Positions 2,798-64,000 of a stretch of 64,000 nt of DNA are shown piece after piece. The stretch lies in the NCBI GenBank assembly GCA_027262695.1, contig GCA_027262695.1_4722.1; one strand, 5' to 3'. The notes under the pieces are model-generated. The model ran no database searches. It worked only from the letters and a program-made list of their open reading frames with translations, and had not been told where the DNA came from. Numbering within the stretch: the first letter of the stretch is position 1; each line of letters starts with the position of its first letter. This DNA comes from a phage. A program made the position numbers and the translations under genes.

Positions 2798-5059
2798 TTA
2801 CAATTCGAAATCTTCATCGATAACGCGTTGGGTTAGCACCTTGTCGCTGAAGAACTCCACCTTACGTTGATGGTATTTCCGATGTGCTTCAATCGACGTA
2901 CACACCAGATACCAGAACGTGGGTGTCATACCCTCGAACTTCCCTTTCAGCTGACGTAGTCGACCTAACACCTGAATGTTACCAGTTCTCGACCCCATCG
3001 CTAACGTCATGAACGTCATCACCAAGTCAGGAAGATCGATTCCTGTACCAGCCGATTTCACCGTTGTCACACTGATATCATTATCCAGTAACACCATGAA
3101 ATCTTCTTCAGCGGTATAAGGACCTATCTCCAACTCAGGGATACGTTCACTTAAGTAATGCGATAACGACTTGCACATATCAACGGTTGCACAATACACC
3201 AACATCTTCATGCCTTCCTGATATTGGTTCATGAAACCTTTGATAATAACCGTATAGATAAAGTTGAAATAGGCGAGTTTGAGTTGCTTATTCTTCATGA
3301 TAGACTGTTCGAATACCGTGTGAGAATAAGAACCTCCAAAGCCTTTGTATCGGACTTTATCCGTACTGCGTAGTCGATACGTCACCGCATTTACCGCGAT
3401 GTATTTCTTGTATTCACATTTCGCATAACGTGCTTCTTTCGGATACATCAAATACAGCATCCGCTCGATGAACGGATCGTCAGACACCGCCGTTGCCGAC
3501 AGATAAATGATTTCCGGAATATTCGCGTAACACTTCACTTTGAACAAGAAATGCAGAGCTTCGTGACATTCATCGTGGATTAACAATCCAATGCCTGTTT
3601 TCTCCCAGAACTCGACTGGATGGAAAACATAAGGTGCGACACAGTTGTTCTTTTCATAATCGGTTATATAACGCTGAAACATGTTCAGTGAGAATAACGC
3701 AATTTTGAAATCCAACTCACCTTGTTCTACCAGCGTCTGAAATTCCAACATGCTGTAACGAGGAATGTCGGGATGCGGTGGGTCAGACTGGGCTGTACCA
3801 CGTATCTCGATAACATCACCTGGTTCCATACCGAAGAAACTTAGCAGTGAGCTACGCCATCCAGGCATGTACCTCGGTGACAGAATGATGCCCGTCCGTA
3901 CACCACGTCGGAAGGTGATCTCCTGCGACATTGCGGTGTTGTGCGTGACGATATGGTCTTTAATAACATAAAGGCTTTCGTCGTTGTCCACCGTGATGCA
4001 ACGTGCCTTCGCTTTCACCGTCGGCACGATGCCGCCAATCGCTAAACCAGGAAGCGTGTTAACGGGAAGATCATCTGGAATCTCAATGCCGTCAGGAATA
4101 AGCTTAAGCAAATCGGAATGGTAAATTAATGTCTCCATCGTGTAACTATTGATGGGGCATTTATACGCGATTCCCCCTAACCGATAAGCCAACTCCCAGA
4201 CCTCGGTCATTATCTGCGAATCGGTGGTTCTGACCGCAAGGTGAGCCCACCCTTCTTCAACACGCAGTACGCAACGATCTTTGATGAGTTCTCTGAAACG
4301 ATCAAGACCCACGAGTTCTTTCGGTTCGTAAAGTCGGATTCTTACCGGACGAGATCGTGACGATCTGTCATTAAGACGTTCCATGATTTCACTCGTGCTG
4401 AGCACCTTGTCAGGATCCGTGCATTGCCAGAGATGATCACCACACGCTTCAACCATTCGTCCATCTTCAAAGAAGACAGCGTAAAGCTGAATATCGTCAT
4501 GATCAAAGATAGCAGTTACGTTCGTCGGTAAACCATCCGCGCCGATGACCTCATCACCCACCTGGAGCTCACCAATCGGCTTCCAACCGCTTGGAACCTT
4601 AACGGGTGTATGGAGAGCCAATGCTTTCCCAGACCCCGTGCCTGCGGTGTTTAGGCTCATTCTGAAAGGGGTATCCTTACCCCCATCCATGTACTCCAAC
4701 CATTCTTGCTGATCTTCACGCCACGGAAACTTCCAGTTCTTCACAAACTCCACTTCCTTACCTGGAACCGGATCGTGGTAAACGATTTCCAACCACTCCT
4801 TTCGAATTCCTCGAGAAAAGATAAAATCCAAAAACGACTTCAGCTGTTCACGAAGTAAGTAGACCTCGCTATAATCGCTTCTTGCTGCGGCGTAGGTGTT
4901 GATGGTATCGGTGACCATTCTCCGTGTACGAGGGTCGCGTCGTTTCCGTAGATGCAAACAACGGTCTCGAAGGTAATGGCCAATCAAATGGGCAAATCGA
5001 AGTCCGTATCCGCTCAGCTTCATGCCATGCGAGAAGACGTCGATACGAGCTAACTTCAT
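2798..5059 (-). CDS. SF2 DExH-box helicase precursor containing an intein
   Basis: Walker A 'AGTGSGK' followed after a 229 aa insertion by 'T'; motif II 'LLIHDECHEA', motif III 'LSAT', motif VI-like 'QVLGRLRQ'. The Arg-rich N-terminal 47 aa look non-coding-like, so the true start may be the internal Met near 4918. Confidence 0.75.
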   Translation of the reverse strand: MKLARIDVFSHGMKLSGYGLRFAHLIGHYLRDRCLHLRKRRDPRTRRMVTDTINTYAAARSDYSEVYLLREQLKSFLDFIFSRGIRKEWLEIVYHDPVPGKEVEFVKNWKFPWREDQQEWLEYMDGGKDTPFRMSLNTAGTGSGKALALHTPVKVPSGWKPIGELQVGDEVIGADGLPTNVTAIFDHDDIQLYAVFFEDGRMVEACGDHLWQCTDPDKVLSTSEIMERLNDRSSRSRPVRIRLYEPKELVGLDRFRELIKDRCVLRVEEGWAHLAVRTTDSQIMTEVWELAYRLGGIAYKCPINSYTMETLIYHSDLLKLIPDGIEIPDDLPVNTLPGLAIGGIVPTVKAKARCITVDNDESLYVIKDHIVTHNTAMSQEITFRRGVRTGIILSPRYMPGWRSSLLSFFGMEPGDVIEIRGTAQSDPPHPDIPRYSMLEFQTLVEQGELDFKIALFSLNMFQRYITDYEKNNCVAPYVFHPVEFWEKTGIGLLIHDECHEALHFLFKVKCYANIPEIIYLSATAVSDDPFIERMLYLMYPKEARYAKCEYKKYIAVNAVTYRLRSTDKVRYKGFGGSYSHTVFEQSIMKNKQLKLAYFNFIYTVIIKGFMNQYQEGMKMLVYCATVDMCKSLSHYLSERIPELEIGPYTAEEDFMVLLDNDISVTTVKSAGTGIDLPDLVMTFMTLAMGSRTGNIQVLGRLRQLKGKFEGMTPTFWYLVCTSIEAHRKYHQRKVEFFSDKVLTQRVIDEDFEL
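3938..4624 (-). mobile_element. Intein (229 aa, class-3-like: Ala1, block B Trp, block F Cys, block G Thr-His-Asn, +1 Thr) in the helicase P-loop
   Basis: Insertion lies exactly between Lys and Thr of GSGK|T. N-terminal block A-like 'ALALHTPV...GEL', block B-like 'EACGDHLW', block F-like 'ARCITVDNDESLYV', C-terminal 'IVTHN' then Thr. Removing it restores a canonical 'GTGSGKT' P-loop. No endonuclease-sized domain is evident. Confidence 0.6.
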
Positions 5060-23356: not shown

Positions 23357-24248
23357 CTGTTTGTCGACTATATCTTCATCTTCATTGCGAAGAGACTCTC
23401 GTTTGGGTTTGTGTTTAACAAAGCCTACTCTACTCAACATCGCGTCTTTCGATAGTCTGTGAGCACACATCTTAACGAATATTCGTGGGTTCCTACAGAC
23501 AGGTGAATATTCTTGTTGAGATGCTTCGCTGCGGATTATTCCCGTCCTACCTCTTTTACCATACCCAGTTCATTACGCTGGCCCTCATCGATGTCACCAT
23601 GATGAGTTGGTGTGTAGTCCGATTACAGAAACTTCCCGTCAATTAGAGAGTTTTAACTATGCTCCTGTTACCAGGAACCAGATCCCGACGGTATCAATAA
23701 ATCAACGTAAGTTATTGATTTAATTGAAAAAACTGAAATCTGCATTATCTTAATCTTCGATATGGTTCGCTAAGCCATATCCGCACATACGTGCAGCTTA
23801 CGTCTTTCACGTAAGAAGAGACTATATCTTTCACCCTCAGCTTTACCTGTTAGGGGCTCCCATTTCGGCGGTCGTTTGACCGGTGGTTTCCCACGCCGCT
23901 TGGCCCTAACGCCCGTGAGCGATAGTCGTTGAGCACATCTCCGTTCTGGAGACTTCGCTGCGGATTCCTCAATCCTTACTGCTTTTACCGTACCTGAATG
24001 ATTAGTTCAGCCCCACGCTCTGTTCCCAGGCATGGTTGGTGAGCAAGGCTCTAAGTAGGTTCCCGCTATTAGAGAGTTCCTCGTGACAGCATTACTGTGT
24101 CACTGGGCCTAATGACCCTTTCAAGATCATCACGCTTAACCCGATGGTGTTATCCTGCGGGTCGCGTTTAACCTTGGTGATTTCAAGACATTGGTTACTG
24201 CTACGGTCAAGTGATGGATTTCGAACAAAGCCACACACAATCCCATCG
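23357..24248 (-). ncRNA. Two tandem ORF-less group I intron cores inside the beta-prime N-terminal gene (boundaries approximate)
   Basis: Minus-strand elements for core 1: P AATAGCGGGAA (24060-24070), Q AATCCGCAGC (23957-23966), R GCTCAACGACTATC (23921-23934), S AAGATATAGTC (23820-23830). Core 2: P AATTGACGGGAAG (23632-23644), Q AATCCGCAGC (23528-23537), R GCTCACAGACTATC (23451-23464), S AAGATATAGTC (23366-23376). Stops in all frames; no ORF over 70 aa. Confidence 0.65.
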
Positions 24249-25357
24249 AACGGTGTATCAGCAATAAGCTCGTCATGCAGCTCGCTCATCATCGGATGAT
24301 AATTGCGGACATGCTCTGCAACGAACGCACGGGCTGCTCTTGGTGAATAACCACGATGGAATAACTTGGATTGGATATGTTCTTTATTGGTTAGTGTAAA
24401 TGGTGCGTACGGAAAATGCAGATGATAATAACGATGGTTTGCTGTTATCGAACTGATGACCGTACGTGTGGTGAATGGATGTAATGTACCTAATATGTTC
24501 TTACGTGTGATCCCTTTCTTCTTACCAATGAACTCATCGAAAATCGCCGAGTGATACTGCAACAGCTTCAATTGCACTTTCGCCATCCAGTTTTCTTTCT
24601 TTCTGGCGCTTAGTGGCGTGGTTGGATGATAGATGCTATTCAATGTTCCGATGGCGTCTATCGCACCTTCCATTTTGCTGTCAGCGTAACGTCCTGTTGG
24701 CGTGTTCTCGATCACGAACATCATGGCTGCAGGAAAGCTGATGTACTGACTGAAGAATTTATCCCGATGAATACGGATGAATTCGCGTAGCGTATCAACC
24801 TTCTCCATGTTCTTCGGTCCACGTAGTGTGGGTCCTTTATACAAGATCTCCATGATACGATCGAAGTTCTGTATAAAGCTATTTATACCGCGTCGTATTC
24901 CGAATACATCGAATTGCTGTTCCAGATAGTTCTTAAGTTCGATCGGTCGTTTTACGTTCGGACGGTAACTGGCATCAATGAGCCACGTCATCGTTTCAAA
25001 GCTTTTGATATTCAACTCGCTTGCCAGCACGAGATGGACCAACGGGTTAATGAACGCATCGATACCTTCCGGTACGCGCGCCCAGACCGTTGAACGAATC
25101 TCTTGTTCTGCTGGATAAGTGACAACCGTTTTACAGTTCGGGCACACCGTCCCTAATAACTCACCGCGATTATAGAAACCACAACCGCATTGCGGGGTGA
25201 TATCCAAGGTATCGCTCGAGTAAACACGGGTGATGAAACTGTTTAATTTCTTCTTCTCTTCCACGACCTTCGTATCATAATCGTTCAACAATATCGGCGT
25301 AAAAGGAAGTTCTGCGAGCTGTCTATCGAAACTGACGATATCGAGCATGATGGCCAT
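24249..25357 (-). CDS. RNAP beta-prime N-terminal subunit, upstream exon (3' boundary approximate)
   Basis: Zinc ribbon 'CGCGFYNRGELLGTVCPNC' matches the spacing of E. coli beta-prime 'CLCGKYKRLKHRGVICEKC'; 'HPMMSELHDELIAD' resembles 'HPLVCAAYNAD'. The ORF reads on into the intron ('TPFDGIVCG...') to a stop at 24092. Confidence 0.6.
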
Positions 25358-25449: not shown

Positions 25450-27348
25450 TTAGAACAGGTTGAATGCCCCGCCCATGCCGTTACCGCCCACATTCGGACG
25501 ATCGTTACGTGCGTAGATGTTGCCGCTGATGGTACCCAGACCGCGAGCACGTGCTGCCATGTTACCACGAACAGCGGTGCCTGCCAGATGCTGGATGTTC
25601 TCAGGACGGATGGTGAAGCCTGCTTCAGCAGCCGCTTCAATCAGTGCCTGCAACGCCAGCGGATCGAAATCATAACGCATCGCCCAGCCGGTTTGTTCCC
25701 AGCTACCAGACAGAACGCGGTCGATGATTTCGTGACGAGCAACCACACGCTGAGACATCGACATATCGGTACGGTCGAAGCTGTCTTCCCAAGCTTCTAC
25801 GGTATCCGGGTTGGTGATGTTCATCATGTACAGATCGTCCATATCACGAATATCGTGACGGTTACCGTCCTGGTGGTTGTAGTGACCCAGCGGGATACGG
25901 TTACCGGTCGCGTAGACCAGCGGTGAGCCGTACGGATATTTCTTGCTGAAGCAACCCAGGGTAACATCATCGAACGCACGGAAGAGGGCTTTGTAGCCTT
26001 CGGAGTATTCCTGTACGTCCCCTTCAACATTACCCGAGAAGATCTTCTCAGCCGCCGGGATCATACGCAGCAGCCAGCTGTACTCGCCTTCTTCTGGTAC
26101 ATCGATAGAGATCAGCAGAGACGGATACAGAACCTGTTGCAGGAACTTGTAAATCTGCTCGTTGGTTTGCGTAGACAGATCCAGCGGTGCAGTCACTTCA
26201 GGATCCAGCACCATCGCCAGAGCACCTGGGTTATGCGGACCAATACCACGAGCCGCGTTGCTGATTAAAGACTGTGCCCATGCCATGCCGCTGTTCAGCG
26301 TAGCGATGGTACCAATCAGACCCAGCACGAAGCTGTTCGGCGTGAACGCATCCAGTTCCAGCGGATACATGCTGGTCATTACGTAGCGCGGCTGGTACTG
26401 AACAGTTGGCGGTACCGGATAACCGTTAACCAGAACAGGACCTTGCTGGAAGGTCGGGTTCTGCGGGCTGTAGGTCAGATCGATATAACCGGTGGATGCA
26501 ACCAGACGCTGCTGGCTATCGTAATCGCCCATCGCTTGACGGATGCGGTTAGAGATAGTTACAGTAATGTCGGAGCGTACCGGGTTACCCGCGATATCAC
26601 TGTCCTGCATGCCGCTGGTGTTATACTGAACGCTGCTGATCGGCTGGTCGCTTGCCATCATACCCAGGTTGAACTGAGGCAGGCCCAGTCTGTCAGCAAA
26701 ACGCATTTCGGTTGCCGTCTGGATCGCGTTATCTGCTGCAGACAGCAGGGTGGTTGCCAGATGCGCAGATTCAGCAGTGATTTCATTGGTCACAACAGCC
26801 AGACCAGCGATACGTACCGTACCGTTGGCTTTACCACCGATAGCCGCATACATCGCTGCCATGACTTCGTTGATGAACGTGCCGTTCAGGTTATCCACCC
26901 AAGTACATGGTACCAGGATGTTACCGTGAGGACCACGTTCTTCACGACGTGGCAGCGGAGCCAGGCCAGCAACCAGCGGAAGGACGTAACCGAAGAAGTG
27001 GTTATGATCGCCCACTTTTACACCGCTCATCACAACCAGGGTCGGATACGGTACGCTGTACTGGTTCGGGTCAACCGCAACAAAGATGAAGTCGTCTTTG
27101 AACTGGGTATCTTCCAGATATTTCTCCATCAGACGACGGAGATTCAGTACCTGCTCGGAGCCGGTATTACGGCTGATACGACGGCTCAGTGTACGGTTGA
27201 TCGTACGCATCGTATGAGTTACTTTAGGACGGTCAGCAAAATCTGCAGCGGTTTCGACCGCTTCGTTAGCGCGCTGCGCCGCGCGGGTTTCAGCTACGCG
27301 GATGTCTACGTTATCGTTACCGTTATTGTTACGTACGTCTAAGCCCAT
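25450..27348 (-). CDS. chmA: candidate chimallin (phage nucleus shell protein) / abundant 632 aa protein
   Basis: The 632 aa size matches known chimallins; the gene lies immediately upstream of the beta-prime N-terminal gene (the gp54-gp55 arrangement of phiKZ as I recall it) and within about 8 kb of PhuZ. It has an AAGAGGA RBS and the conserved 11-mer upstream. No alignment was performed. Confidence 0.45.
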   Translation of the reverse strand: MGLDVRNNNGNDNVDIRVAETRAAQRANEAVETAADFADRPKVTHTMRTINRTLSRRISRNTGSEQVLNLRRLMEKYLEDTQFKDDFIFVAVDPNQYSVPYPTLVVMSGVKVGDHNHFFGYVLPLVAGLAPLPRREERGPHGNILVPCTWVDNLNGTFINEVMAAMYAAIGGKANGTVRIAGLAVVTNEITAESAHLATTLLSAADNAIQTATEMRFADRLGLPQFNLGMMASDQPISSVQYNTSGMQDSDIAGNPVRSDITVTISNRIRQAMGDYDSQQRLVASTGYIDLTYSPQNPTFQQGPVLVNGYPVPPTVQYQPRYVMTSMYPLELDAFTPNSFVLGLIGTIATLNSGMAWAQSLISNAARGIGPHNPGALAMVLDPEVTAPLDLSTQTNEQIYKFLQQVLYPSLLISIDVPEEGEYSWLLRMIPAAEKIFSGNVEGDVQEYSEGYKALFRAFDDVTLGCFSKKYPYGSPLVYATGNRIPLGHYNHQDGNRHDIRDMDDLYMMNITNPDTVEAWEDSFDRTDMSMSQRVVARHEIIDRVLSGSWEQTGWAMRYDFDPLALQALIEAAAEAGFTIRPENIQHLAGTAVRGNMAARARGLGTISGNIYARNDRPNVGGNGMGGAFNLF

Positions 27349-61550: not shown

Positions 61551-62696
61551 TTATTTGGCTTCGTTAAAATAAATATCAACGGCACGTTCCGTTGCGTAGA
61601 GAAGACCCAGATTCACGGTCCCTACCACTTCCGGTGAACCGATGATACGGTTAGCGATACTGGTGCCACTGAAGATAGCATCAAGGGTGTGCCCGTCTTC
61701 GGTTTTGTTCACACCATGACCCACGGAAGAGACAACGGATTTTGCCTGTGCTGCGAAGGTACCTTTATCCCCCATTCCCGCACCCAGGTCGTAACGCATG
61801 AAAATACGGATGGCGATCTGGTTCTCGCCTAACGGATTACCGTCTATTCTCACGTTACTGTTGTTGATGCGTCCCGTTGTTGCTTCGTTGAGTTTCAGTT
61901 CCTTAACGCGTTTAGCTCGCGCTTTATCCGCTTCACCCACAAGTGCTGCCATGGTTTCACTCATGTCTTCAATCTGGGCACGATACAACACATCGATCTG
62001 TACGACTTCACCATGCACGTCAGCCCGTGGGTTATACTGACTCATACGGCGTAACGCTTCAACCGCTTCCTGACTTTCATCGCTCAGATCGGTCGCAATC
62101 GGTTCTTCCAGTGTTGCCAGGATCGTCCGAGGTTCAACATGATCGCCGATTTTCACCAAACCACGAATGTTGAGATGAGCGTCAACAATGAGCGTACGAC
62201 TCTTAATCGATGGTGTTACGAGACGATCAGCGAGATTGTCGAAGATATACGAACTGTCCTCGTGCGTTTCTGGAATATCCAAAATACCAACCAAAGACAG
62301 AACGCCTGCGCGCCAAACCACCTGACCTGGGTTCCACCAATCCCGTTTGAAATAAAGACGATGGAATACCACTACATCCTGATCCTTAACGCGATCACCA
62401 ACTTTATAATCGGTAATGAGATCGTGAGGATAATACTTACCTGGTCCTTTCCCGATTATCGTACCGAGTTGGAAAACCTCTTCCCCTAATTCTGGATCGT
62501 CGTATTGTATCGTAAGCGCTGTTTTGGTGACCTTCTTCACAACACCATCGCCTTGAGCAGCTGCTGCGAAGAGTTTACCAACACGATGCGCGATAACAGT
62601 CTCACCACCTGTACGCCATGGTTGTACGTCGTAACCTTCAGCAGCTATCATGCGGTTGTGCTGTATACCTATAAATACGAGACGCTTTGGCGAAAT
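61551..62696 (-). CDS. RNAP beta subunit fragment, downstream exon (5' boundary approximate)
   Basis: The frame opened upstream of the annotated Met reads 'RLVFIGIQHNRMIAAEGYDVQPW' (cf. beta '[25 protein letters not shown]'); also 'HEDSSYIF' (cf. NFEDSI) and 'GAGMGDKGTFAAQA' (cf. [13 protein letters not shown]). Confidence 0.55.
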   Translation of the reverse strand: MSPKRLVFIGIQHNRMIAAEGYDVQPWRTGGETVIAHRVGKLFAAAAQGDGVVKKVTKTALTIQYDDPELGEEVFQLGTIIGKGPGKYYPHDLITDYKVGDRVKDQDVVVFHRLYFKRDWWNPGQVVWRAGVLSLVGILDIPETHEDSSYIFDNLADRLVTPSIKSRTLIVDAHLNIRGLVKIGDHVEPRTILATLEEPIATDLSDESQEAVEALRRMSQYNPRADVHGEVVQIDVLYRAQIEDMSETMAALVGEADKARAKRVKELKLNEATTGRINNSNVRIDGNPLGENQIAIRIFMRYDLGAGMGDKGTFAAQAKSVVSSVGHGVNKTEDGHTLDAIFSGTSIANRIIGSPEVVGTVNLGLLYATERAVDIYFNEAK

Positions 62697-63208
62697 CCAG
62701 CAAAATACAATTACTGTGCGTCTAGATTGTTCAGATAAGGTCGTTAATCTTATCCCGGTGGTGATGATAGGTGCATCACCAACCCGCTTGCGCTCTCACG
62801 CAAGAGCAGACTATATCACATCTCGTTTCAAACGGTGCTTCTTCAGCGCCTCAACGAGAGTTCACTTCTTCCCAGCGCATCCAGCGCCATTCTCTTATCC
62901 AAGGAGAATGCCTCACTCGAGGGGTACAGGGGGATGAATCCCTTAGTCGTTGAACCGTCACCCTAGAACGTTTCACAACGATCCTTAGGCGATTGGCTGC
63001 GGATTGTCCTTAAGCTATTATCTGTTTTATAACCATACCGTCTTTCTTTTCAGAATCCGTTTTGGTCGATAACAGCGATGGATGTCTTCGCAATTCAGTG
63101 AATCTCATCTACATGTCGCCATATAGACGGACCCTGCTATTAAAAGCGTTAATCATCTCTGTCGGCAGCAGGTACTGCAAGTGCCGATGTACTCATTATT
63201 GACGAGCT
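62697..63208 (-). ncRNA. ORF-less group I intron in the RNAP beta gene (boundaries approximate)
   Basis: Minus-strand P AATAGCAGGGT (63131-63141), Q AATCCGCAGC (62996-63005), R GGTTCAACGACTAAGG (62941-62956), S GATATAGTC (62809-62817), then three P9-like hairpins (CTTGCG/CGCAAG, GGTGATG/CATCACC, GATAAG/CTTATC). It separates two in-frame beta segments. Confidence 0.6.
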
Positions 63209-64000
63209 ACCATCCGTTTTCTCGTCGTAAGGTTTTGTTTCACCGTATACAGACACGATGTTTGCGTTAGGTGCAAGATAAGCAGAGATACCTACATCGC
63301 CACTGTCCTTCGTACCTTCAGATACCACACCGATGTCTGACTTGTCGTATTCACGATCGCGTGCGCGTCGAAGCGATGTTTTCGAACGACCCCCGATACC
63401 GGTCATCGTTGCTTCTTCACCCTGCTTGATATCCAACATCGGGTTGGTTTCATCGATGACAATAGAAGCACTGTCGTCAAGGATTTGGTTCCAAACGCTC
63501 ACCGGACTGATTGAGATCTTCTGTCGGTTGCCTTGGCTGCTGTTCTCGTTTTGACGAATAGCACCAACCAGATCCTTATACACCAACTCAGCGAACTTAT
63601 CGTACGTTTTGAAGCGCTGGTAGTTCACATCGTTCGTGTTCGGTGCCCAATCATCCAGAAGCAGTTCAACAGCACGTAATAACAACATGGCGAAATCAGT
63701 CGGTTCACCCATGTTCTGCAATAATGTACGACTTACCGGGTCGACGAAAAGACGCTCCATGAGTTCAAGTTCGCGAAGATGACGAACCTTAAGACCTGCA
63801 CCATCGACAACGTTAAAATAGATATCCCGATTGTCAAAAGCGCCGCGAGCGTAACCGATGTAATTACGGTATTCGTTAAATCCACCCAACAACAATGTCG
63901 TCATTCGATCATCTTTACTGAAGATCAAACTTTCATCGTCGAAGCTTACCGCGAATTCATCCGATGCTAAGCCCATACGAGAACCACGAACTACCGTACG
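63209..64000 (-). CDS. RNAP beta subunit fragment, upstream exon (5'-partial; continues beyond the window)
   Basis: 'GIGGRSKTSLRRARDREYDKSDIGVVSEGTKDSGDVGISAYLAPNANIVSVYGETKPYDEKTDG' aligns with E. coli beta '[64 protein letters not shown]'. The frame is open to nt 64000; after 'KTDG' it runs into the intron and stops at 63149. Confidence 0.6.

Follow-up and report, generated by a model that had tools for sequence, protein, structure and literature searches.

The DNA analysed here, one strand of 64,000 nucleotides (nt) from contig GCA_027262695.1_4722.1 of the phage assembly GCA_027262695.1 (hereafter the window), comes from a Goslar-like jumbo phage and is about 92% identical to Escherichia phage Goslar (NC_048170). 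An open reading frame (ORF) of 632 amino acids (aa) at 25450-27348 on the minus strand, directly upstream of a beta'-like RNA polymerase (RNAP) gene, is the homologue of Goslar gp246, annotated as 'nuclear shell protein' (chimallin), which confirms that the window is from a nucleus-forming jumbo phage. Here, we describe an insertion in another RNAP gene, that of a beta subunit at the far end of the window. The insertion is very probably a td-like group I intron, in phase 0, in the virion RNAP (vRNAP) beta gene of the phiKZ gp178 / Goslar gp207 family.

The interrupted beta subunit gene

The Goslar counterpart of the interrupted gene is one uninterrupted gene of 1448 aa, gp207, annotated as 'RNA polymerase beta subunit'. 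In the window the gene is laid out as follows.

63152-64000, minus strand: exon 1, partial since the gene runs past the window end; ends ...SALAVPAADRDD, GAU GAU, with U63152 as last exon base; collinear with Goslar gp207
62691-63151, minus strand: group I intron, ORF-less, 461 nt, phase 0; begins UAACGC and ends ...GGAUUUCG, with G62691 as omega-G; placed by the Rfam model RF00028 and by its absence from Goslar at exactly that point
61551-62690, minus strand: exon 2; starts CCA AAG CGU (PKRLVFIGIQHNRMIAAEG...) and runs to the stop codon; collinear with Goslar

The gene is homologous to that of phiKZ gp178, which is the beta-like subunit of the RNAP packaged into virions (PMC11620839, PMC11512511). 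With the predicted spliced protein as query, tblastn returned 293 jumbo-phage records including phiKZ gp178, to which it is 46% identical, and its PHROG match is phrog_3148, 'RNA polymerase beta subunit' (E 1e-153). Sequence searches of Pfam and PDB with the same protein gave no match, and the identification as RNAP beta thus draws on PHROGs, the homology to phiKZ gp178 and the literature.

The upstream minus-strand ORF (63149-63976) leaves the window end and has its stop at 63149-63151, its product ending ...YGETKPYDEKTDGSSSIMSTSALAVPAADRDD*, while the next long minus-strand frame holds ...RLVFIGIQHNRMIAAEG and continues to 61551. The initial annotation had described a gap of some 0.5 kb without a credible ORF between two beta pieces, and such a gap indeed separates these frames. 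Its explanation, that an ORF-less group I intron splits the gene, is backed by the Rfam score, the intron-less Goslar allele, phrog_3148, homologues at the same site and the lack of an intact ORF. The upstream ORF had, however, been taken to end just after ...YGETKPYDEKTDG (...EKTDG). It is 19 codons longer (SSSIMSTSALAVPAADRDD) and stops at an intron-derived TAA. As a consequence of the wrong ORF end, the 5' splice site had been placed at 63209-63212, whereas homology to Goslar reaches 63152 and the site is 63152|63151, about 57 nt further downstream. The element given as 62697-63208 is thus 62691-63151: its 5' end had to be moved, and the proposed 3' range of 62660-62700 holds the real site, 62691|62690.

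The boundaries were derived by alignment with the gp207 region of Goslar (locus coordinates L001). Window positions 64000-63152 aligned to L001 3001-3849 and positions 62688-61508 to L001 3852-5032; homology breaks exactly at 63152 and 62688, and the window holds about 461 nt of DNA that Goslar does not. When all in-frame exon junctions were enumerated, the one joining U63152 to C62690 was the only one that combines a U at -1 with a G at the intron end and a product as long as that of Goslar. Junction 63151/62689 was dropped because the intron would end in C, and junctions 63155/62684 and 63152/62684 because they shorten the protein. The predicted ligation, ...AVPAADRDD|PKRLVFIGIQHNRM, equals Goslar's ...AVPAVDRDDGKRLVFVGIQHNRM in length and has no stop codon; a comparison of this kind with an intron-less beta subunit had been suggested at the outset, and the spliced protein is collinear with gp207. 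At the RNA level, the predicted junction GAUGAU|CCAAAGCG corresponds to GACCGTGACGAT|GGAAAACGT at the uninterrupted gp207 site. The intron's first bases, UAA, terminate the exon-1 frame, and its terminal G62691 has an equivalent in all six homologues at the same site, which likewise end in G.

The same insertion point in other phages

Insertion points were compared on the DNA of the window, PhiPA3, 201phi2-1, HPP-Temi and three sister genomes described below (L013, L014 and L015). In all of these the GAT GAT| insertion point is identical to the nucleotide, as illustrated by four junctions.

Window: ...AGA GAT GAT|TAACGC ... GATTTCG|CCA AAG CGT
PhiPA3: ...AAC GAT GAT|TGTTATTG ... GATCTCG|ATG AAA CGC
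201phi2-1: ...CAC GAT GAT|TGTGTATT ... TATCACG|ATG AAG CGG
HPP-Temi: ...AAC GAT GAT|TGAGGTTA ... GACAAGG|CCG AAA CGT

The PhiPA3 intron and its nicking HNH endonuclease gp210 have been characterised at this site (Birkholz et al. 2024, PMC11620839), the intron being inserted immediately after two conserved Asp that these authors aligned to D674/D675 of E. coli RpoB (PMC11620839). Splicing of the 201phi2-1 intron in gp273/274 has been supported by proteomics and by two exactly spliced Oxford Nanopore Technologies (ONT) reads (PMC11512511), and gp273/274 is annotated as a joined coding sequence.

Ribozyme core and covariation

A covariance-model scan, also proposed in the initial annotation, matched RF00028 at 62787-63153 on the minus strand with 51.0 bits against a gathering score of 50 (E 5e-10, model positions 1-253 of 253, no truncation), the sole gathering-level RNA hit in the window. 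The model hits all same-site copies (E 8e-10 to 4e-21), the sister copies with 49.7-54 bits and the Pseudomonas-phage homologues with 68-87. The minimum free energy of the intron is -146.3 kcal/mol (z-score -3.26 against dinucleotide shuffles), and 0 of 100 shuffles were equally stable. The elements of the core are listed below in 5' to 3' order of the transcript; A1 denotes a MAFFT alignment of six same-site introns with their ORFs trimmed, from which the consensus structure was obtained with RNAalifold.

63109-63126, minus strand: P2 hairpin CUAUAUG-GCGA-CAUGUAG with a GNRA loop; 7 of the 9 P2-helix pairs changed on both sides among homologues
63097-63102, minus strand: P3 5' strand UUCACU, pairing with 62861-62866; compared by eye on A1, with UUCAUU/AGUGAA in L014 (C-G to U.G) and CUUCUC/GGGAAG in PhiPA3
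63087-63095, minus strand: 'P' element, J3/4 and P4 5' strand (AAUUGCGAA); Rfam and RNAalifold
63006-63086, minus strand: P5, extended by P5a (CUGUUAUC/GAUAAUAG), a bulge rich in A and a helix ACCA/UGGU; RNAfold
62995-63005, minus strand: 'Q' element, P4 3' strand (AAUCCGCAGCC); Rfam and RNAalifold
62955-62996, minus strand: P6, P6a and P6b; compensations between window and L013, and covariation
62944-62955, minus strand: 'R' element GUUCAACGACUA, J6/7 and P7 5' strand, the helix of the G-binding site; invariant in six homologues, Rfam consensus
62875-62942, minus strand: region of P7.1 (62931-62942) and P7.2 (62911-62922); RNAfold, covarying with the Pseudomonas-phage homologues
62888-62910 and 62875-62887, minus strand: two extra hairpins between P7 and P3'; RNAfold, only in the E. 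coli-phage lineage
62861-62866, minus strand: P3 3' strand AGUGAA; same basis as the P3 5' strand
62822-62858, minus strand: P8 (CUCGUU.../...AACGAG) and a distal helix GGCGCU/AGCACC with a C.A mismatch; Rfam and RNAfold
62809-62817, minus strand: 'S' element GAUAUAGUC, J8/7 and P7 3' strand; invariant in all homologues
62734-62804, minus strand: P9 (62787-62804), P9.1 (62760-62780) and P9.2 (62734-62754); RNAfold, with covariation in P9 and P9.2 and a U-A to A-U change of P9.1 in L014

That P, Q, R and S lie on the coding strand, followed by three short hairpins, had been read correctly from the letters alone; the hairpins are P9, P9.1 and P9.2 as folded by RNAfold. Rfam's own alignment of P1 and P2 contained many non-canonical pairs and was discarded in favour of a homology-based guide sequence and P2.

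On A1, RNAalifold recovered P2, P4, P5, P6/6a, P7, P7.1, P7.2, P8, P9 and P9.2. Over 51 pairs, 97.7% of the cells are standard pairs and 27 pairs have changed on both sides; none of 500 column shuffles reached any of these measures, and 34-43% remained paired when the 3' partner was slid by 1-3 columns. P3 was left out of the pair count and compared by eye, MAFFT having placed it one column out of register between lineages. The P7 helix is invariant across the six introns. Substitutions between close copies are likewise informative. The introns of the window and L013 differ at 9 positions, 6 of which lie in helices, and all 6 keep pairing, two double compensations included (A30G, giving G.U in P2; C161-G193 to U-A; G162.U192 to A-U; U174-A181 to C-G). 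In L015, a P4 mismatch of the window (A64xC150) is A-U and the P5 pair U70-A145 is C-G, and the distal P8 mismatch C.A is U-A in both L014 and L015. By architecture alone, with P7.1/P7.2 between P7 and P3' and P9.1/P9.2 after P9, the predicted fold would place the intron in subgroup IA2, the T4 td-like type.

Putative guide pairings and the 3' end

Three further features concern the alignment of the exons and the end of the intron.

63143-63149, minus strand: putative P10 guide, ACGCUUU at intron nt 3-9, able to pair with AAAGCGU at exon-2 nt +3 to +9
63127-63134, minus strand: putative internal guide sequence (IGS) for P1, intron nt 18-25 GGGUCCGU, whose GUC aligns with PhiPA3, 201phi2-1 and HPP-Temi
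62691-62733, minus strand: 3' tail as seen in the alignment, a 32-nt insert (62698-62729) and then the conserved terminal heptamer GAUUUCG with omega-G

All copies keep the guide GUC immediately 5' of P2, and in the introns of PhiPA3, 201phi2-1 and HPP-Temi it would pair with exon GAU and the first intron bases. In the window, P1 would consist of U(-1).G20, A(-2)-U21 and G(-3)-C22 plus U(+1).G19, that is 3-4 base pairs (bp) without a bulge, the U63152.G20 wobble included, where the 201phi2-1 equivalent has 7 bp (GAU|UGUG with UACAGUC, including U(-1).G). An extension toward exon GAU(-6..-4), with G24.U(-4) and U25-A(-5), is possible across a bulged C. Another candidate, AUUAA/UUAAU at the splice site, was dropped as P1 because it would pair U(-1) with A; at best it is the P1-extension helix of the Pseudomonas phages (UAUUGAAU/AUUUAAUA). 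The proposed P10 would have 7 bp and -8.1 kcal/mol (RNAduplex), and a comparable P10 is found in 201phi2-1 (AUGAAGCG/CGCUACAU).

The 32-nt insert is present and nearly invariant in all four E. coli-phage copies and absent from the introns of PhiPA3, 201phi2-1 and HPP-Temi and from T4 td; no further copies were found in the window or the fetched loci. It could form a hairpin CAGUAA/UUGCUG that is invariant across copies and hence gives no covariation signal. A second candidate hairpin, ACAAU/AUUGU, was rejected, since L015 has a U-to-A change within it. RNAalifold pairs the guide GUC (63130-63132) with GAU of the last seven intron bases (62695-62697) in 5 of 6 homologues. Exon 1 ends in this same trinucleotide, so that the guide could be contested between the 5' exon and the 3' tail. 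Just upstream of the insert, 'CUGAACAAUCUAG' is reminiscent of 'CUGAACAUAAUG|', where the td intron ends, and gives the impression of a former 3' splice site that was moved aside.

Such a resemblance, together with a 3' end made atypically long by the insert, might be taken to mean that a functional group I intron uses another 3' site, either the td-like one after CUAG (G62722) or G62697, which is in frame and preceded by G. We consider this very unlikely. With G62697 two residues are added (DRDD-IS-PKR), and with G62722 the reading frame is shifted and runs into a stop; both were dropped, and only 62691|62690 gives a Goslar-length product with the same DD|PKR junction as HPP-Temi. In the alignment, the terminal GAUUUCG has GAUCUCG| (PhiPA3) and UAUCACG| (201phi2-1) as counterparts, and P10 starts 2 nt downstream of 62690.

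Sister genomes and a probably lost endonuclease

Collection scans revealed three further Goslar-like genomes that carry the intron, none of them identical to the window: IMGVR_UViG_3300045988_173921 (L013), IMGVR_UViG_3300011560_000001 (L014) and ENA OGZS01000006.1 (L015). Two are ORF-less. The L013 intron has 461 nt and is 98% identical to that of the window, with flanking exons 90-93% identical, and the L015 version has 503 nt with two small hairpin insertions. The L014 version has 1583 nt and carries in its P1 loop an ORF of 403 aa that reads through the core to P6 and encodes an HNH/NUMOD1 endonuclease that matches PhiPA3 gp210 along its entire length with 36% identity (E 3e-56). In the window intron there is no intact endonuclease ORF, just a stop-interrupted remnant of 37 codons.

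63040-63150, minus strand: 3'-end remnant of the HNH ORF, overlapping the IGS to P5; tblastn with L014 endonuclease aa 331-367, 49% identity, E 1e-7, in-frame stop

The last eight codons of the L014 ORF are also recognisable in the window intron, and these two traces point to an ORF-bearing ancestor. We infer that the ORF-less form most likely arose by deletion of about 1.07 kb in L1 and of about 90 nt in the P5 extension. No other homologues of the L014 endonuclease were found within the window. Among sequenced relatives, empty (Goslar), endonuclease-plus (L014) and endonuclease-minus (window, L013, L015) alleles coexist.

Next to the intron, in the stretches 62950-63350 and 62590-62690, exon sequence carries far more mismatches to Goslar than the remainder of the gene (27, 17, 6, 4... 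per 100 nt going upstream and 16, 3, 5... going downstream, over a background of about 3-12), most of them synonymous. Between the window and L013 there are no mismatches within 55 nt upstream and 44 nt downstream of the intron site. Judged from sequence, such a pattern would be expected if the flanking exons had been co-converted by a more distant donor as the intron homed. In a collection of 50,697 phage records, blastn with the window intron matched only a 31-nt stretch of T-even td introns (see below) and no isolate carries the window intron; neither there nor in the searched literature was an E. coli phage with this intron found.

With the nearest isolate only about 92% identical to the window, the gap might in principle stem from an assembly artefact or from a non-coding mobile element of another kind and not be a host-gene intron. 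Three independent assemblies hold the intron at an identical position, namely two uncultivated virus genomes (UViGs) of IMG/VR and ENA OGZS01000006.1, which excludes an artefact. The full group I core with covariation and an excision exact to the nucleotide relative to Goslar also speak against this explanation, to which we assign next to no probability.

Predicted splicing and proposed maintenance of the intron

The window intron is probably, to judge by its sequence, an endonuclease-less descendant of a mobile intron that still splices. A number of points weigh against a working td-like intron. Its Rfam score is only 1 bit above threshold, and the covariation was tested on a structure derived from the same alignment, in which three of the six sequences are closely related to one another. 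In the window and L013, P4 has an A x C mismatch (63088/63002) and distal P8 a C.A (~62848/62835), at positions that are paired in L014 and L015; the window lineage may thus have a slightly weakened ribozyme. P1 as proposed is short and the weakest element of the window copy, to be lengthened only across a bulge and at the cost of the bottom of the P2 stem. The first two bases of exon 2 would lie outside P10, and the 3' splice site is preceded by the 32-nt insert. In phiKZ itself, the predicted introns were unspliced in long-read ONT RNA-seq (PMC10914365), so intron prediction in this phage group is no proof of splicing.

The weak P1, the P4 and P8 mismatches and the phiKZ data would also suit the serious rival reading, a dead intron relic with beta made as two polypeptides, one ending DRDD* and the other starting from Met 62651 (MIAAEG...). 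RNAP beta and beta' of chimalliviruses are naturally fragmented (PMC11620839, PMC12908238), and an ATG-started ORF of 366 aa does lie at 61551-62651. The 39 nt (13 codons) before this ATG, PKRLVFIGIQHNR, are nevertheless in frame and conserved with the continuous ORF of Goslar, and the ATG has no Shine-Dalgarno-like sequence ahead of it. No promoter or terminator was found on the coding strand of the gap in a scan that covers the sigma-70 type and not the phage's own promoter types. Helix substitutions among the window, L013, L014 and L015 all preserve or restore pairing, a sign of purifying selection that is unexpected for a non-functional RNA, and the 201phi2-1 intron at the same site has the proteomic and read-level splicing support cited above (PMC11512511). 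A relic is for these reasons highly improbable.

For the intron as a functional ribozyme, we propose the following mechanism. The pre-mRNA would fold into the P3-P8 core, the exon-1 end GAU would pair with the guide GUC (intron nt 20-22), forming the U63152.G20 wobble in P1, and exogenous guanosine would attack after U63152. With exon 2 aligned by the 7-bp P10 (AAAGCGU / ACGCUUU), the 3'-OH of exon 1 would then attack after omega-G62691 and yield ...GAU GAU|CCA AAG..., that is ...DRDD|PKRLVF... Since the intron starts with UAA, unspliced RNA would give truncated protein only. What made the lineage mobile at this site would have been a nicking endonuclease of the HNH/NUMOD type encoded in the P1 loop, as exemplified by PhiPA3 gp210 and the 403-aa ORF of L014. 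The window copy, having lost its ~1.07 kb of ORF and kept the ribozyme-overlapping 3' end, would no longer home by itself and may persist because it is spliced and because occupancy of the site destroys the endonuclease target.

The ORF-less intron might moreover be a selected immunity allele and not a mere relic, in a 'warfare' of introns at RNAP catalytic motifs among Goslar-like E. coli chimalliviruses; this is a tentative idea, which we hold to be possible but lean against. If true, splitting GAT GAT|NNN AAR CG would protect the essential vRNAP gene from being cut by the HNH nickase that co-infecting relatives encode, without the cost of an endonuclease of its own. The supposed threat is modelled on PhiPA3 gp210, an enzyme of this kind able to cripple an intron-less competitor. 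Because transcription takes place in a protein nucleus away from ribosomes, the intron would in such a scenario have to fold and splice without the help from translation that T4 introns need. Natural endonuclease-plus, endonuclease-minus and empty alleles are at hand for competition experiments.

Other introns in RNA polymerase genes

A permissive Rfam scan of the window brought up a further two group I introns in the beta'-like gene, one scoring 49.2 bits at 23357-23726 and the other 26.9 bits at 23798-24135.

23749-24114, minus strand: intron X, ORF-less, 366 nt, in the beta'-like RNAP gene, a homologue of Goslar gp247 (exon 1 at 24115-25357)
23736-23748, minus strand: mini-exon of 13 nt, AUAAUGCAGAUUU, between introns X and Y
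23357-23735, minus strand: intron Y, ORF-less, 379 nt, in the same beta'-like gene

Removal of X and Y restores ...LSVMILKGYNADFDGDAMNNHIVPD..., with the universal Mg-binding NADFDGD motif. Goslar has no intron X, and intron Y is 92% identical to Goslar's intron, without its HNH gene gp186. When the beta intron is overlooked, the essential virion RNAP beta subunit is misannotated as two false genes, the second starting 13 codons late, and the same annotation problem affects the beta'-like gene at 23-25 kb.

The initial annotation had noted that the Q and S sequences recur in a beta-prime gap about 39 kb away, and the Q core AAUCCGCAGC and the S core GAUAUAGUC are indeed present in the introns there. 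From this it had deduced a family of related introns in the RNAP genes. Introns do occur in both genes, but a close kinship does not follow, Q and S being generic group I consensus. By BLAST, the beta intron matches intron X over just a 33-nt stretch and has no match to intron Y; its true kin are the introns that other phages carry at the same site. With the HPP-Temi intron as query, 94 phage records of many genera and genes were returned, which indicates a broad and promiscuous pool of td-like phage introns and no phage-specific family.

Related arrangements were observed in Goslar. In its locus L003 (165553-172548), at about 2890-4702, an intron A with HNH gene gp186 follows NADF, then comes a 12-nt mini-exon GACGGTGACGCT (DGDA) and after it an unannotated ORF-less intron B of 355 nt that is not in the window; RefSeq lists the pieces as separate genes. 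The window and Goslar together have three distinct insertion points within about 30 coding nt around NADFDGD. A second Goslar locus, L008 (211000-216500), corresponds to DNA beyond the 64000 end of the window and holds gp205 (beta'-like vRNAP), gp206 (HNH, 490 aa) and the non-coding RNA gs002, which look like one intron with an endonuclease in its P1 loop. After gs002 comes an unannotated exon, DGDTVSVNVLYSMEAIDE..., that stops just before the ATG of gp207, and the gs002 locus appears to be another NADF|DGD insertion.

Comparison with known introns

The annotated group I introns of Goslar (Intron_gpI gs001 and gs002, NC_048170) are of the same clade and likewise sit in RNAP genes, splitting two beta'-like subunits at NADF|DGD, and gs002 shares segments of 72-91% identity with the window intron. 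They differ in gene and site and are accompanied by HNH ORFs (gp186, gp206), and the beta-gene site is empty in Goslar.

The PhiPA3 gp210 intron, in gene gp211/gp209, is a homologue at the very same site, with 65.8% ribozyme identity over 240 nt (E 5e-13, blastn), the same IGS GUC, a GCGA-capped P2, the P5 extension and a P9.2 loop UAACGA. It has 1352 nt with an endonuclease, in contrast to 461 nt without one in the window, and belongs to a Pseudomonas phage; the window copy adds two hairpins after P7.2 and the 32-nt insert. The 201phi2-1 intron is itself ORF-less (336 nt), with the same site and core, and its splicing restores DD|xKR; among the introns compared it offers the strongest experimental precedent. 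It retains an 85-nt P1 loop, lacks the P5 extension, which PhiPA3 and HPP-Temi have in homologous form, and has a shorter 3' end. BLAST gave no match between the 201phi2-1 and window introns in either comparison, their homology being seen only in the six-way alignment A1.

The td introns of T4 and other T-even phages (IA2) have the same P7.1/P7.2 and P9.1/P9.2 architecture, in a different host gene (thymidylate synthase) and with a GIY-YIG endonuclease, I-TevI, in P6 where the present lineage has an HNH enzyme in P1. Over 151 nt, the 201phi2-1 intron and td share 67.5% identity. Window positions 62728-62758 are identical in 31 of 31 nt to P9.2 and its flanks in the td introns of about 40 T-even-like coliphages, beyond which there is no BLAST-level similarity between td and the window intron; in the same stretch L014 differs at 2 bases and L015 has a 24-nt loop insertion. 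This identity could have come about by chance, a short stem converging on a conserved loop, or through exchange between introns of co-infecting coliphages.

The window intron is a real example of an already known intron type at a known homing site and no new class of element. It extends the one 'weaponised' intron site of nucleus-forming phages that has been studied by experiment (PhiPA3 gp210 / phiKZ gp178) from Pseudomonas phages to the Goslar group of E. coli phages, a tractable model.

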